Virus record (IMG/VR): IMGVR_UViG_3300017917_001940
Span: 65,830-129,829 of that record
Length of the DNA: 64,000 nucleotides
Source: a virus
Direction: 5' to 3' (one strand)
A program made the translations under genes and the position numbers. Positions 20,608-25,432 of the stretch are shown here, one piece after another. How positions within the stretch are numbered: position 1 is the stretch's first letter; the number at the start of each line of letters is the position of its first letter. The notes under the pieces are model-generated. The model was not told the DNA's origin. It did no database searches and saw nothing but the letters and a program-made list of their open reading frames with translations.

Positions 20608-20795
20608 TGAACGAAGAACGTCAATTAGTAGCACAAGCCGTCCTGGCTGGTGACTTGGATGCCGATCAGCTTACATGGGAAGAAGTTCAAGAAATTGAAT
20701 TACTAGTAGCTGATTTGGTTGCTGAAAAAACATTGATTGAGCAGGCCAAGTTAGGCAAGAATGTATTTGCCCACTATTCGGATATCATTCAATGA
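20604..20795 (+). CDS. small acidic hypothetical protein
   Basis: 63 aa, coupled. Confidence 0.7.
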   Translation: MMNEERQLVAQAVLAGDLDADQLTWEEVQEIELLVADLVAEKTLIEQAKLGKNVFAHYSDIIQ

Positions 20796-21127
20796 ATCAT
20801 CAGTTTATTGTCATGTGGGATTGTTACGGGCTGGAAGTATGCTGTGATGTAACCGAAGCACAACAACGGGCAGTTTGGGAAGAACTGCAAGGCAAAGGTG
20901 TCAGTGAAAGTGGCATACCAAGTTTAGGTCACCTAACACTTCGTGCTCGCTACAACCCACAGAGACATTATGAAATTTACATTATCGAAGCAGTTGAAGG
21001 CATTGGTGCTATCGACATTCGACAAATGTTTGAAGAAGATCCACAAGGTGCGGCTGATACAATTCGCCGCTTAGGTACTTGTGTTTACAGTGACAAGGTT
21101 GACAAGGAGAACCGTGTGATTGTATAA
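20792..21127 (+). CDS. conserved phage hypothetical protein
   Basis: MWDCYGLE...LRARYNPQRHYEIY. Confidence 0.75.
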   Translation: MNHQFIVMWDCYGLEVCCDVTEAQQRAVWEELQGKGVSESGIPSLGHLTLRARYNPQRHYEIYIIEAVEGIGAIDIRQMFEEDPQGAADTIRRLGTCVYSDKVDKENRVIV

Positions 21128-21128
21128 T
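21099..21128 (+). promoter_or_regulatory. sigma70 promoter embedded in the upstream gene end, firing into the RNA candidate
   Basis: GG-TTGACA-N18-TATAAT. Confidence 0.7.
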
Positions 21129-21384
21129 GGTTACTGGTTGCGGAGTAACGCCCGCTAGTCTGACCCGGACGAAAAGTGGAATGTTAACCACGGGTGGTTC
21201 CCGTTTAACCCTAACGGGCGTTGGCAGCACGACAGCGGCCCATGGTGAGGAGCGGATACCTCGTAAGCAGGCAGTTGGTCTATACTCGACTTTTAGGGCG
21301 ATAATCCTAGATTGAAGCGGTGAGCTAGACAGCTTGAAGGTGGAAAGATAAATGTAACCGCCGGTGGGTGCAGAGCACCTTTTT
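21129..21384 (+). ncRNA. candidate ~250 nt structured non-coding RNA
   Basis: GC-rich island; AACGCCCG/CGGGCGTT stem enclosing hairpins; further GAGG/CCTC, TAGG/CCTA and GGTGG/CCGCC stems; own promoter and terminator. Confidence 0.55.
21367..21384 (+). terminator. putative intrinsic terminator
   Basis: GGTGC-AGA-GCACC-TTTTT. Confidence 0.55.
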
Positions 21385-21390
21385 CTTATA

Positions 21391-21405
21391 AATCAATGAC
21401 TTAGC
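21391..21405 (+). promoter_or_regulatory. IHF-consensus site
   Basis: AATCAATGACTTAGC, 7 nt upstream of a -35 box. Confidence 0.65.
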
Positions 21406-21412
21406 TTATTGG

Positions 21413-21441
21413 TTGACCAAAATCACATAGTTTGCTATAAT
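21413..21441 (+). promoter_or_regulatory. sigma70-type early promoter of the RM-like operon
   Basis: TTGACC-N17-TATAAT. Confidence 0.85.
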
Positions 21442-21466
21442 AGCAGTATAGAATAAGGATAAATTA

Positions 21467-23698
21467 ATGGCAAGAATGATGATTTATACCTGGAATGACC
21501 AGGACAATGCACTTGATGAAACAAAGATGGGAGACCACTTTGTGCCGTTTGACTGCACTCTGCAACAGGCAGAGCAACACACTATTGATTATATTCGAAC
21601 TCAATTCCCTCGTCGTGCTCGACACTTTAATAGTGGTCGTGTGCTAATGAAAGTTTGGGACGTTAGTGATATTGCTCGCAAGTTTAATAAATTTCGCAAG
21701 GGCAGTCACATTGACGATTTAATTCGCGAGGCATGTTTGGGGCGGCCAGGTACACAAGGTCGAGAATTCCATGCACTGCCATTTGATGATACAAATGCCA
21801 AACTTGACAAGTATCTGTATAAAATGGGTACTCCACCACCAGTGGTTTGTTTGACTGCCTGGCAGGCTCGTAGTGCTGAACGTGTTATTGAAGATATTGC
21901 TAATGGTAAGAGAACTATCATGGCTGAGTTATGTGCTCGCTTTGGTAAAACTATTTGGGGTGGTGTATTAACTCGCGAAACTAACGCTAATCTTACAGTG
22001 GTTGTCAGTTATGTGCTAACCAGCTTTGCCAGTTTTGAAAAAGAATTTGTGGGGTTTAAGCAATTTGCTGACTTTGTTAGTGTGGACACCTCCGATCCAG
22101 ATTATCAACAAGTAATTGATCAAGCACTTGCCGAAAACAAACAGGTAGTAGCATTTTTATCAATGTGTGTAGGCAGTAAACGTCAACAAAAAATCGACTA
22201 TTTGTTTGGCTTAGACACAACTCGATTGGTGTTAATTGACGAAGCCGACTTTGGTGTACACAAAGCAGGACAAGCCAAACCTTTAGTAGAAGCAAGAGAT
22301 CCTAACGATGTTATTATTTTGATGACAGGAACTAACGCAGACAAAGCCTCTAGTTACTGGCCTGTGGATTCTGTTATCAGCGTGGTTTATCCTGAACTGT
22401 TAATTGAAAAAAGATTAACTGCCAACACCAAATATACCACTAGCCTCAAGCATTTTAAGATTGATCCTGCTCGACACAATTTAGTAGTTGATGTAGAATT
22501 CTATCAAATGGATTTAAAAAGTGCTGTGGAATTTGCACGAGCAACTGATCCAGAAGCATTTGTTGAAGATGGTATCTACTTACCCAGTTGGACCAAGTTT
22601 GCCGCTAATCCTATTAAAGCCAAGGGTTTCTGGACTCGTATGCTACAGTCGGTATTCCTGGGTCAGCATGGGTGGGACGAACTCAACGTAGAATACCAGT
22701 TTGGAGAAGTCGCCGATCATCGGGTAGCTATGATGTTCTTAAGTGGTAGCATGAGAAATACCAACTTAGATATTGCGGCCAAACTGGCTCAACAGGCATT
22801 GCCAGGATATGTTGTAGTACCTATCTACGGCGAAGAGATGACCAATCGTTCAGCAGAGAAAGATGTTAAAGATGCTATCGAATTGGCCCGTGAAAAAAAT
22901 CAAAGCGTATTGTTACTAAGTGCTGGTATGGCTCAGCGTAGTTTTAGCGTAGGGGCAATCACAGAACTTTATCTTGCGTATGATGAAGGCGATAACGGTG
23001 CCACAATACAAAAAATCAGTCGAGCGTTGACTCCAGAAGAACAAGGTAAAGTTGGTCGTATTGTTAGTTTAAGTTTTGATCCTAATCGTGATGACAAGTT
23101 TGATTCACTGTTGATTGAAACAGCATTAAACTATAAACGTAGCCGTTGTATTAAATCAGCTAAAGAAGCCATGCGTGATGTACTACACACAGTAGATATC
23201 TTCCGCTGTACAGCCGATGGTTCAATCAAACTAGACGGCGATGATTACTTAGAACAGGCAATTGAACGTAAAAGCGTCAGCCGAGTGGTAGGTAAAGTTG
23301 CAGACATTACTAAATTATCTGTAGCTGAACTAACAGCACTAGCCGACGGTAATGCCAACGCATTTAGAGCCGCTAAACAACAAGCCGCAGAGCGTGGTAA
23401 AACTCGAGCTCGTAGCGTTCCAGGAAGTAAAAATAAAAACAATTCAGAAGAGATGGCCACAGCCAAACTAATTGCTCAAGCCCGTGAAGTTATCACAACC
23501 ATTGTTGAGAATTTGGATATCATTGTGCAAGGAACTGGTAGTCACAACATCAATCGAGCATTTAAACTAATTGAAAACAACCCCGAACACCAACAGGCAG
23601 TCGCAGAAGAGTTTGGTGTTGAGTTTGAACTAATTAAAGAGCTATTTGATCACGGAGTTATTAACACCGATTTGGTCGAATTGCAAGTTGATCATTAA
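21467..23698 (+). CDS. SF2 helicase, restriction (Res)-like, with a putative N-terminal nuclease domain
   Basis: CARFGKT (Walker A variant), LIDEADFG, MTGT; N-terminal ~110 aa resembles T5orf172/GIY-YIG-like domains (weak). Confidence 0.75.
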   Translation: MARMMIYTWNDQDNALDETKMGDHFVPFDCTLQQAEQHTIDYIRTQFPRRARHFNSGRVLMKVWDVSDIARKFNKFRKGSHIDDLIREACLGRPGTQGREFHALPFDDTNAKLDKYLYKMGTPPPVVCLTAWQARSAERVIEDIANGKRTIMAELCARFGKTIWGGVLTRETNANLTVVVSYVLTSFASFEKEFVGFKQFADFVSVDTSDPDYQQVIDQALAENKQVVAFLSMCVGSKRQQKIDYLFGLDTTRLVLIDEADFGVHKAGQAKPLVEARDPNDVIILMTGTNADKASSYWPVDSVISVVYPELLIEKRLTANTKYTTSLKHFKIDPARHNLVVDVEFYQMDLKSAVEFARATDPEAFVEDGIYLPSWTKFAANPIKAKGFWTRMLQSVFLGQHGWDELNVEYQFGEVADHRVAMMFLSGSMRNTNLDIAAKLAQQALPGYVVVPIYGEEMTNRSAEKDVKDAIELAREKNQSVLLLSAGMAQRSFSVGAITELYLAYDEGDNGATIQKISRALTPEEQGKVGRIVSLSFDPNRDDKFDSLLIETALNYKRSRCIKSAKEAMRDVLHTVDIFRCTADGSIKLDGDDYLEQAIERKSVSRVVGKVADITKLSVAELTALADGNANAFRAAKQQAAERGKTRARSVPGSKNKNNSEEMATAKLIAQAREVITTIVENLDIIVQGTGSHNINRAFKLIENNPEHQQAVAEEFGVEFELIKELFDHGVINTDLVELQVDH

Positions 23699-23718
23699 CG
23701 GTTTATAAAGTAAAATAT

Positions 23719-24939
23719 ATGATTGGTCGTTTAAAATTTGAAATTGATCCGTTGGTTAAAAAAATGATTGACAGATTACCAAATGATGTTATTGTCAATG
23801 GAACCATATTTGATCCGGCTATCGGTGGAGGACAGTTTGTTCGAGAGATTGAACGACGCAAACGTGCCGCTGGTAAAACTGATGCCGAGATTGCCTCTAC
23901 TGTGTTTGGTTTTGAAGAAAATGTTCTGCGAAAAAACTATGCAGTAAATAAGAACAAGTTAGTAGGAACTTATAAAGTTGGAAACTTTTTAACCGAGGAA
24001 ATAAAAATGAAATTTGATGTGATTGTTGGGAATCCTCCATATCAAGATAGTCGTGCACCAACTTTAAAATTGTGGCATAAGTTTGTTGAAAAAAGTTTTG
24101 ATTTAATTAATGATGATGGATATCTGGCTTTTGTAACACCTCGTTCTTGGGTTGAGCGTCCTTCTAGTCAACTGAGCAATAAAATTGTCAAGGAAGTTTT
24201 TGCTAAACATCAGTTGTCATGGTTAGACATCACAGCTAAAGATTACTTTCCAGGCATTGGAGAGAATCCATGTTCTTATTGTGTAATCAAAACTAAAAAA
24301 ACTAGTTTAACAGAAGTAATACTAGCAGACAAAACGGAGATGATTGATTATCACGGTCAAAAAATTCCATTAGATGAACTAGATCATTATAAAGTATCAA
24401 TATTTCCTAAACTAACAGGTCAAGGTCATAGGACTCTATTAGATGTTGTGTACAGTGATACTGGTACCGCAACCAGCGTCGACGTAATGGTTAATGATGG
24501 TGTAATGTGCGATACTCCCCAACCTTCTATTACACATGCTAAGGTTTTTTGGACGGCGGCAAATACTGATACCTACTACATGGAACGCAGTAAGATTAAA
24601 TCTGGTATAAAAGTCATTATCAATAGAAGTGGATACTATTACCACCCAGACTTTCCAACCAAATACATTTTAATTGACAGCAAGAATGAATATGCTGTGG
24701 GTGCTGGTGCGTTTGGAATTTCTTGTAAAAACAAACAAGAAGCTAAAAATTTAGTTTCGTTACTAACTACAAAACTTTATAGGTGGTTTATTGACAACGA
24801 AAAAACCAGTGGATTTAATACCGGCATTACTAAATTGCCGCTACTAGATTTAAACAAGACCTGGACCGACAGAGAAGTTTTTGATTTGTTTAATATCTCA
24901 ACCGAAGAAGAAGCGTATATAAATGATTTCTATAGTTGA
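23719..24939 (+). CDS. N6-adenine DNA methyltransferase (gamma/Eco57I-like)
   Basis: FDPAIGGGQF (motif I), FDVIVGNPPY (motif IV), GYLAFVTPRSW, C-terminal TRD-like region. Confidence 0.88.
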   Translation: MIGRLKFEIDPLVKKMIDRLPNDVIVNGTIFDPAIGGGQFVREIERRKRAAGKTDAEIASTVFGFEENVLRKNYAVNKNKLVGTYKVGNFLTEEIKMKFDVIVGNPPYQDSRAPTLKLWHKFVEKSFDLINDDGYLAFVTPRSWVERPSSQLSNKIVKEVFAKHQLSWLDITAKDYFPGIGENPCSYCVIKTKKTSLTEVILADKTEMIDYHGQKIPLDELDHYKVSIFPKLTGQGHRTLLDVVYSDTGTATSVDVMVNDGVMCDTPQPSITHAKVFWTAANTDTYYMERSKIKSGIKVIINRSGYYYHPDFPTKYILIDSKNEYAVGAGAFGISCKNKQEAKNLVSLLTTKLYRWFIDNEKTSGFNTGITKLPLLDLNKTWTDREVFDLFNISTEEEAYINDFYS

Positions 24940-25432
24940 TATGATTTCTCATATAAGAGAACGATCATACATGAGTGGTGTTGATCGCGACGCGGTGCGG
25001 GTAAAAGCGACGGGTGAAGTATTCACGCCAACACCTCTAGTAATAAAAATGTTAGATCGGATGCCTAAAGAATTATTTAAAGACCCAACCAAAACATTTT
25101 GTGACCCAAGTTGTGGTGATGGCCAGTTCCTTGGTGAAGTACTAATCCGTAAAGTAGAAAACGGCATAGATTTTGAAACAGCACTCTCTACAATCTATGG
25201 TGTGGATCTCATGGAAGATAACATAAAACTCTGTCAAGACCGTTTGCTTTGTGGTAGAGAAGACCTGCGTCACATAGTTGAAAAAAACATTGTATGTGCC
25301 GATGCACTGAGATATCACTATAGATTTGATAATTCAGACCCGTACGAAACGGAATATGAATACAGACTAAAGCAGTTAGGTATTATACCTATGATATCCC
25401 AGTATAAAAGCAATACCAAAGTTCCTGCTTAA
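24923..25432 (+). CDS. short methyltransferase subunit (SAM-binding half only)
   Basis: GEVFTP (motif X), DPSCGDGQF (I), YGVDL (II), CADAL (III); no NPPY. Confidence 0.8.
   Translation: MISIVDMISHIRERSYMSGVDRDAVRVKATGEVFTPTPLVIKMLDRMPKELFKDPTKTFCDPSCGDGQFLGEVLIRKVENGIDFETALSTIYGVDLMEDNIKLCQDRLLCGREDLRHIVEKNIVCADALRYHYRFDNSDPYETEYEYRLKQLGIIPMISQYKSNTKVPA

Follow-up and report, generated by a model that had tools for sequence, protein, structure and literature searches.

A conserved, probably discrete structured RNA that usually lies in the tRNA arrays of large uncultured phages

The question raised by this locus is what is encoded in a short segment, rich in guanine and cytosine (GC), that lies between a gene for a 111-aa protein and a restriction-modification-like (RM-like) operon in a 64,000-nucleotide stretch of phage DNA (positions 65,830 to 129,829 of the IMG/VR virus record IMGVR_UViG_3300017917_001940), which is referred to here in its full length as the window and supplies all coordinates unless another locus is named. 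The record as a whole is a contig of 129,829 bp with 39.7% GC, for which CheckV gives a completeness of 38%, implying a genome of about 340 kb. An earlier note on the window had described the segment as a GC-rich island, and this description holds, as the GC content between the promoter and the terminator is 0.555, compared with 0.397 overall, which corresponds to the second most GC-rich 200-nt interval of the contig. The note had also proposed a new structured phage non-coding RNA made as a discrete unit, and this is borne out by the existence of homologues, by covariation and by the lack of a conserved open reading frame (ORF), with the transcript itself being predicted. In the reading favoured here, positions 21133-21385 probably encode a structured RNA of about 250 nt that is stable, acts in trans and is made as a discrete unit. 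Its gene, from a previously uncatalogued family, would be part of the core genome, in single copy, of a clade of phages with genomes of 320-355 kb.

Homologues were found in at least 137 IMG/VR phage contigs, where the RNA ranges from 190 to 270 nt in length, and the first five RNA sequences already presented compensatory changes. A covariance model (R1) covering the 5' half of the RNA was built from five sequences, including the window copy, and was run on the whole records of 50 related contigs, which revealed exactly one copy in 17 of the records, and one copy in nine of the ten records that are at least 90% complete. The tenth of these was fetched through its 743-aa gene (the first of the RM-like operon), has a much lower GC content, and carries no copy. 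The R1 score is 125 bits for the window copy, itself among the five sequences from which the model was built, and 84-116 bits for the copies in other genomes outside the building set. A scan with a motif of the invariant positions, the bases of which were fixed in advance, recovered at least 120 IMG/VR contigs. The strict family motif had no match in 185,579 prokaryote genomes (one per species), blastn searches with the window region and a typical family member returned none from 50,697 cultured-phage records, and exact 35-mer and 24-mer searches returned none from IMG/VR and the Joint Genome Institute (JGI) metagenomes. The carriers are giant, lake-type, uncultured large phages.

The fold shared by these sequences was derived from an alignment (A4) of 86 diverse representatives and the window copy, 87 sequences in all, taken from 125 full-length copies, of which 100 are distinct. 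Standard pairs occupy 96.8% of the 4,042 cells of this alignment, compared with 36-46% when the partners are slid by one to three columns. The structured character asserted by the earlier note is upheld by the covariation found in these homologues, with compensatory changes in 32 of the 47 pairs, and a covariation score of 0.46, versus at most 0.09 for the slid partners and 0.16 for the shuffles, none of the 500 shuffles having reached 0.46. For example, the third pair of helix P5 is CG in 75 sequences, UA in 11 and GC in one, and the second pair of P7 is CG in 71, UA in eight and AU in seven, while six of the seven pairs of P6 covary and full strand swaps are found in this helix, such as CAGGGC/GCCCUG in locus L142 and CCAGAGAC/GUCUCUGG in L144.

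At the core of the family fold are five hairpins on the 5' side, P1-P5, together with the long-range helices P6 and P7, which close a variable arm. From the 5' end, P1 is followed by A/C-U-A, P2 with the loop GACCC, GA...AGAAGU, P3, the single strand GGGUGGU, P4 with the loop NNAACCNA, and P5, after which come the 5' strand of P6, UCGGGAA, the 5' strand of P7 and the peripheral arm, and the 3' portion is made up of AUAAUUA, the 3' strands of P7 and P6, and the tail, for which no pairing partner was found. In the window copy, all 31 core pairs are standard and every core helix from P1 to P7 is formed in the conserved order (Table 1). The GACCC of the P2 loop is invariant in all 87 sequences, and the conserved AACC of the P4 loop and UGGCAR of the P5 loop are found at 21207-10 and 21222-27, respectively.

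The invariant strand may also take part in higher-order pairing, given that its GGGU can pair with the ACCC of the P2 loop (PK1) and its GGU with the ACC of the P4 loop (PK2) in every sequence, which would produce two stacked pseudoknots on one strand. As both sides of PK1 and PK2 never vary, these pairings are inferred. The GGUGGU of the same strand is also fully complementary to the ACCGCC of the P7 3' strand (positions 77-82 and 193-198 of L131), and a near-repeat, GGGUGGA, lies 3' of the P7 5' strand. An alternative conformation through GGUGGU/ACCGCC is thus possible, if unproven, and would be broken in seven sequences by a U at the middle of the P7 3' strand. Two further candidates, a pairing between the 5' leader and J5/6 and the pairing of GGGUG with the 3' trailer proposed by RNAalifold, were rejected, with no support in the counts from the 87 sequences or in the variable trailer.

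The stems listed in the earlier note fared unevenly, with about four of the ten holding, and were at chance level by themselves, as the fold energy is no better than that of shuffles. The minimum-free-energy fold differs from the conserved family fold and is no more stable than that of a shuffled sequence (z = +0.7 to +0.9 for the whole unit, and -0.8 to +1.5 for the sub-domains), and given these non-significant z-scores, single-sequence thermodynamic folding was rejected as evidence. Two of the stems, GTCT/GGAC and GTGG/CCAC, are in fact P2 and P3 of the covariation-supported fold. The GGGT/ACCC stem is close to the likely pseudoknot, TAGG/CCTA is plausible, as it is common to the closest homologue, L133, and GAGCT/AGCTT lies in the variable domain. 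The 8-bp enclosing stem AACGCCCG/CGGGCGTT, together with GGCCA/TGGTC, GAGG/CCTC and GGTGG/CCGCC, had to be abandoned, since these conflict with P1, P4/P5, P6 and P7.

The periphery of the RNA is far less uniform. The majority arm, which is shorter than that of the window copy, has P8, a 3-nt bulge, tandem G.A / A.G / U.U and P9, in a kink-turn-like arrangement, and the window copy and L133 have a longer and different peripheral domain that lacks the kink-turn. A third type of arm is found in L162, L184, L188, L194, L201 and L238, where the conserved words CUGCUGAGGGAC, GCCGAUGGG and AACCAACCAGGAUG replace the kink-turn arm. As this third type has words of its own, the family contains at least three types of peripheral domain.

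Table 1. Positions, in the window, of the RNA, its predicted signals and the overlapping or adjoining reading frames
Feature	Position	Strand	Remarks
111-aa gene, upstream	20792..21127	+	RNA begins a few bases after the stop codon
Sigma70-type promoter, TTGACA-N18-TATAAT	21099..21128	+	In the last codons of the 111-aa gene; 12/12 match
62-aa ORF	21127..21315	+	Spurious; ATG inside the -10 box, 5' of the predicted transcription start
P1 hairpin, GCGG/CCGC	21140..21155	+	8-nt loop; 5/5 pairs covary in A4
P2 hairpin, GUCU/GGAC	21158..21170	+	Loop GACCC at 21162-21166; 3/4 pairs covary; 99.4% of cells pair
P3 hairpin, GUGG/CCAC	21176..21191	+	5/5 pairs covary; length varies across the family
Single strand, GGGUGGU	21192..21198	+	Invariant in 87/87
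P4 hairpin, CCCGUU/AACGGG	21200..21218	+	Loop UUAACCCU at 21206-21212; 4/5 pairs covary; 99.5% of cells pair
P5 hairpin, CGU/ACG	21219..21231	+	7-nt loop UGGCAGC; family loop consensus UGGCAAU
P6 5' strand, GCCCAUG	21238..21244	+	Pairs with 21362 and 21364-21369
P7 5' strand, GCGG	21252..21255	+	Pairs with 21358-21361
Variable peripheral domain, inside P7	21256..21357	+	Contains hairpin UAGGG/UCCUA at 21294-21309
P7 and P6 3' strands	21358..21369	+	P7: CCGC, 21358-21361; P6: C21362 and GUGGGU, 21364-21369; G21363 bulged
Tail, GCAGAGCA	21370..21377	+	Each position at least 90% conserved
Intrinsic-terminator-like hairpin, GGGUGC-AGA-GCACC then UUUUU	21366..21385	+	Hairpin itself 21366-21380, 6 bp

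Given the ORF of 62 codons that overlaps most of the RNA, it may be asked whether the segment instead encodes a small protein, the translation of which would be coupled to that of the upstream gene by a stop-start overlap, TAATG, that does resemble the gene-to-gene overlaps found further upstream. The likelihood of this is negligible, however, in the light of several lines of evidence. The ORF has no protein homologue and was not called as a gene in a collection of 5.8 billion proteins, and it scores 0.04 for codon usage, within the range of spurious ORFs, with the real small genes of the phage lying mostly between 0.3 and 0.6. The GC content of its codon positions 2 and 3 is 0.61 and 0.48, with the peak at position 2, compared with 0.38 and 0.32 in the real genes. 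In L133, the closest homologous DNA, there are three to six stops per frame, in all frames, together with many indels of lengths not divisible by three, and the substitutions relative to the window number 21, 26 and 15 at codon positions 1, 2 and 3, with no third-position bias, and conservation follows the base pairs. The ORF is spurious and non-coding, as the earlier note had supposed.

The next step is to consider how a discrete RNA might be made from the locus. The promoter that the earlier note had placed in the end of the upstream gene, and the hairpin with five U residues at the end of the unit, are both present as described (Table 1). The promoter is the window's only perfect match to its consensus with an 18-nt spacer, where chance would provide, by this analysis's own estimate, about 0.1 perfect matches per window over both strands, and it is very unlikely that a perfect match only a few bases 5' of the first conserved helix arose by chance. 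The predicted start of transcription, at about 21133-21137, lies 3-7 nt 5' of P1, and the -10 box overlaps the codons for the conserved C-terminal VIV-stop of the 111-aa gene. The promoter is atypical for this phage, with an 18-nt spacer and no TGn, and is outside the early class, which has a 17-nt spacer and TGC-TATAAT. The early promoters, TTGACC/A-N17-(TTTGC)TATAAT, form a set of 13 sites at 8961-30398, all matched with at most one mismatch, where 1.2 would be expected by chance. The claim that the RNA has its own promoter is valid for the window copy, but is particular to it, given that the corresponding site matches at 10/12 positions in L129 and at 9/12 or fewer in every other homologue.

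The terminator hairpin of the window copy reuses the conserved tail and overlaps the 3' strand of P6, and its extended form is present in this copy and in the closest relative, L133. A tail hairpin of at least 4 bp followed by a U-run is found in five of 45 copies outside tRNA arrays and in none of 30 copies inside them, and it was thus rejected as a family-wide terminator. In the window copy, the U-run ends 8 nt past the tail, which would put the 3' end of the RNA about 6-8 nt past it.

These spacings are best understood in the genomic context of the family, which is dominated by transfer RNA (tRNA) genes. In 80 of the 137 loci (58%), a tRNA on the same strand ends within 15 nt 5' of P1, most commonly a tRNA for Tyr (33), Ser (12) or Asn (7), and a tRNA lies within 300 nt in 111 of the 137, with none in the other 26. 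The gap between the encoded CCA of the upstream tRNA and the RNA is 4-10 nt, and a closely following tRNA mostly starts 3-7 nt past the tail, so that, given the short gaps to both flanking genes, the RNA fills a tRNA slot. No tRNA or transfer-messenger RNA (tmRNA) gene was found by ARAGORN in the whole 129,829-bp contig, and the window copy lies outside any array. The relatives have large arrays, and that of the contig may lie in the missing 62% or so of the genome. The array position is customary for the family, but its structure does not require it. As the spacings in the window match those in the arrays, transcription alone would reproduce in this phage the ends that processing would make elsewhere, and this spacing is the chief argument for a discrete RNA as the product, with the transcript and its ends being predicted.

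Relatives of this phage also encode a tmRNA of betaproteobacterial type, circularly permuted and in two pieces, which lies beside arrays of at least ten tRNAs in L131 (217-636) and L144 (203-616), with Rfam beta_tmRNA scores of 112-124 bits and the tags ANDEQFALAA and ANDEVYALAA. This tmRNA type suggests that the hosts are Betaproteobacteria.

The position in the arrays raises the possibility that the RNA represents a new functional class, within the phage translation toolkit, that would act directly on tRNAs, either by binding or sensing their 3' ends through UGGU-ACCA pairing, or as a ribozyme of maturation or modification that processes the array transcripts. The RNA does follow immediately after an encoded CCA, its invariant GGGUGGU includes UGGU, the complement of ACCA, and GGGUGGUA and AAUUACCGCC, taken together, resemble the T-box motif AAUUAGGGUGGUACCGCG, while some 60 conserved junction nucleotides would be usual for a ribozyme or an aptamer. 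Internal pairing explains the GGGUGGU equally well, however, and the T-box-like words are split and differently ordered, the 5' leader that follows the CCA is not conserved in the copies outside arrays, and there is no match in Rfam to a T-box, RNase P or ribozyme even at E-values of up to 10. On balance, a direct action on tRNAs appears rather unlikely.

The window copy itself, as noted above, follows the 111-aa gene, and a role shared with this gene must also be weighed, whether as an element of the 3' untranslated region (3' UTR) that stabilises or regulates the mRNA, or as an RNA partner of the protein. The 111-aa gene is followed by the RNA in eight other loci, with protein identities of 41-72%, the RNA lying about 7-30 nt past the stop codon, which brings the copies directly 3' of this gene to nine, and most of these loci lack a separate promoter. 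This context accounts, however, for only nine of 138 copies. In most of the complete or related genomes, the RNA is inside the tRNA array, more than 100 kb from the 111-aa gene, as in the complete genome G009. The gene has homologues in 307 IMG/VR contigs of this phage clade, and nhmmer found the RNA directly 3' of the stop codon in four of the best 80 loci of these homologues, leaving 76 with no adjoining RNA. No RNA-binding fold can be recognised in the protein, which falls in no Pfam or PHROG family and, although its AlphaFold2 (AF2) model is confident (pLDDT 81.5), has no Foldseek match in the PDB at E-values of up to 0.001. Its family has an invariant CC-D motif, W9, D10 and QRxYEIY. A role tied to the 111-aa gene is decidedly improbable.

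On the 3' side, the earlier note had linked the RNA to a helicase/nuclease-methylase module, that is, the RM-like operon at 21391-25432, which encodes a 743-aa protein with no Pfam domain, a 406-aa N6-methyltransferase and a 169-aa methyltransferase-like protein. In the form most favourable to such a link, the RNA would be a cis-regulatory leader or riboswitch of the operon, and the mutual exclusivity of the terminator hairpin and P6 does bear a superficial resemblance to an expression platform, although the adjacency is known in this window only. The operon, in fact, has its own promoter, TTGACC-N17-TATAAT with a TG, at 21413-21441, past the terminator of the RNA, and the genes found 3' of the RNA change from phage to phage (tRNAs, a ParB-like gene or the RM-like operon). 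The RNA is absent from 47 IMG/VR loci that have a homologue of the 743-aa protein with 32-61% identity (searched with nhmmer and the covariance model) and from 80 metagenome loci of the same kind, and the 743-aa homologue is absent from all 137 RNA loci. The neighbouring genes have relatives that are 88-90% identical, of which one locus, L267, was examined, and here (560-700) the 743-aa homologue is 89% identical and the operon promoter, GTTGACCA...GCTATAATAGC, is kept, with no RNA. The DNA upstream of it is unrelated and holds another gene, which ends in a terminator of its own, and a small additional ORF precedes the large gene. As none of the 127 loci with a 743-aa homologue, L267 included, carries the RNA, the proposed link falls, and a leader function is extremely unlikely. 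The operon behaves as a cassette with its own promoter, and its adjacency to the RNA is incidental.

Searches against known RNAs agree with the earlier note in placing the RNA outside the catalogued families. In Rfam 15, no family reached the gathering threshold for the window RNA, and when E-values of up to 10 were accepted over 700 nt, the sole alignment was a weak one to int-alpA. There was no Rfam 15 match to tRNA, tmRNA, RNase P, the signal recognition particle (SRP) RNA, 6S RNA, group I or II introns, or known ribozymes or riboswitches, and ARAGORN called neither a tRNA nor a tmRNA at the window RNA. Fifteen homologue loci searched against Rfam gave no match to GOLLD, ROOL, the T-box (RF00230), RNase P or any ribozyme. 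Weak matches to tmRNA_permuted (20-24 bits, E of 0.5-5) were observed in L132, L136, L138, L139 and L143, at about 1469-1692, and begin in the T-arm of the tRNA-Tyr that comes before the new RNA and span all of the latter, being probably an artefact of the tRNA T-arm and CCA. Strings characteristic of the RNA had no match in the full text of the literature, a search that did not extend to a comparison with the 8,495 candidates of the structured-RNA survey of IMG/VR (PMC10690425).

Several points weigh against the reading of a discrete trans-acting RNA. The transcript and its ends are predictions made from the DNA, and the terminator stem and P6 compete for the same bases, so that the two are mutually exclusive and cannot coexist. 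The kink-turn arm that most family members have is missing from the window copy, the single-sequence fold energy, as already described, is no better than that of shuffles, and the bases of the putative pseudoknots are invariant, an invariance imposed in part by the search motif. The 17 copies found by R1 alone, without the motif, carry these bases too. In nine loci, the RNA would be the 3' UTR of the 111-aa gene, where a cis or partner role has a slight probability. Finally, the five complete relatives encode neither an L7Ae-type kink-turn binder nor RtcB.

The discrete trans-acting RNA nevertheless remains the preferred reading, and the following course of events may be proposed for it. In the majority of the phages, where the gene sits in a tRNA slot, the nucleases of tRNA maturation would excise the RNA from the array transcript. 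In the window phage, where the gene is outside an array, the consensus sigma70 promoter and the intrinsic terminator built on the tail would give nearly the same ends. The invariant junction nucleotides could then produce a specific tertiary fold that binds a partner, and as the family usually sits in tRNA arrays, a partner from among the tRNAs or the translation machinery is favoured, while regulation of the adjacent RM-like operon would form no part of its function. RNAs that are large and highly conserved and have many invariant nucleotides at their junctions have usually proved to be ribozymes, riboswitches or the cores of ribonucleoproteins.

The value of the locus lies in what it adds to the family. 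The RNA was found as one copy in every near-complete genome examined of a widespread clade of uncultured phages of about 350 kb, and the window copy demonstrates that the family can leave the tRNA array. Given its consensus promoter and terminator, this copy also delimits the functional unit without tRNA processing.

Among the known systems, the T-box leaders are the first to be compared, given that the UGGN of these leaders pairs with the NCCA end of the tRNA. The new RNA has the words GGGUGGU and AAUUA..CCGC, and its majority form has a kink-turn-like element. Unlike a T-box, however, it has no match to RF00230, carries the words apart and in another order, lacks a specifier loop, and is not followed by a gene for an aminoacyl-tRNA synthetase. 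T-boxes are also rare in Betaproteobacteria, the probable hosts of these phages. The resemblance is thus one of words, suggesting at most that the UGGU could bind the ACCA end of a tRNA.

The int-alpA motif (RF02996) shares with the new RNA a sub-motif formed by CUAG, a 4-bp hairpin, CGAAAAG and a second hairpin. The alignment scores 15.3 bits, however, compared with a threshold of 35.8, with E = 2.2, and covers 39 nt of the RNA, the motif itself having 71 nt.

A parallel in genomic habit is provided by the species 1 and 2 stable RNAs of phage T4, encoded by rnaC and rnaD, which are also small and stable and lie right after a tRNA in a phage cluster, with gaps of a few bases. R1, run with its filters off, gives at most 5.2 bits on the T4 tRNA cluster, the T4 RNAs are not homologous to the new one, and rnaC ends in a tRNA-like T-arm, which the new RNA does not have.

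The large ornate RNAs ROOL and GOLLD, described by cryo-EM (PMC12286853), are encoded by phages or prophages, often near tRNA islands, and are pseudoknotted and highly conserved, with no known function or protein partner, and many GOLLD RNAs exceed 800 nt. The new RNA is likewise phage-encoded and near tRNAs, and would also have pseudoknots. It differs in having 190-270 nt, another fold, no Rfam match in the window or in the 15 homologue loci, and a distribution limited to uncultured large phages, with none in the prokaryote genomes searched. The shared habit of lying beside phage tRNA genes (PMC12286853), together with conserved loops that could form intermolecular contacts, might be taken to mean that the new RNA is a smaller counterpart of ROOL and GOLLD that assembles by itself into an RNA-only particle or scaffold. 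Its size of about 200-250 nt, in contrast with the more than 800 nt of many GOLLD RNAs (PMC12286853), and the lack of a ROOL or GOLLD match in Rfam leave this with very little likelihood. The family thus joins GOLLD, ROOL and the rnaC and rnaD RNAs of T4 as a further unexplained RNA beside phage tRNAs, which is an old question, and its length of about 200 nt puts it within reach of direct biochemical and structural study.

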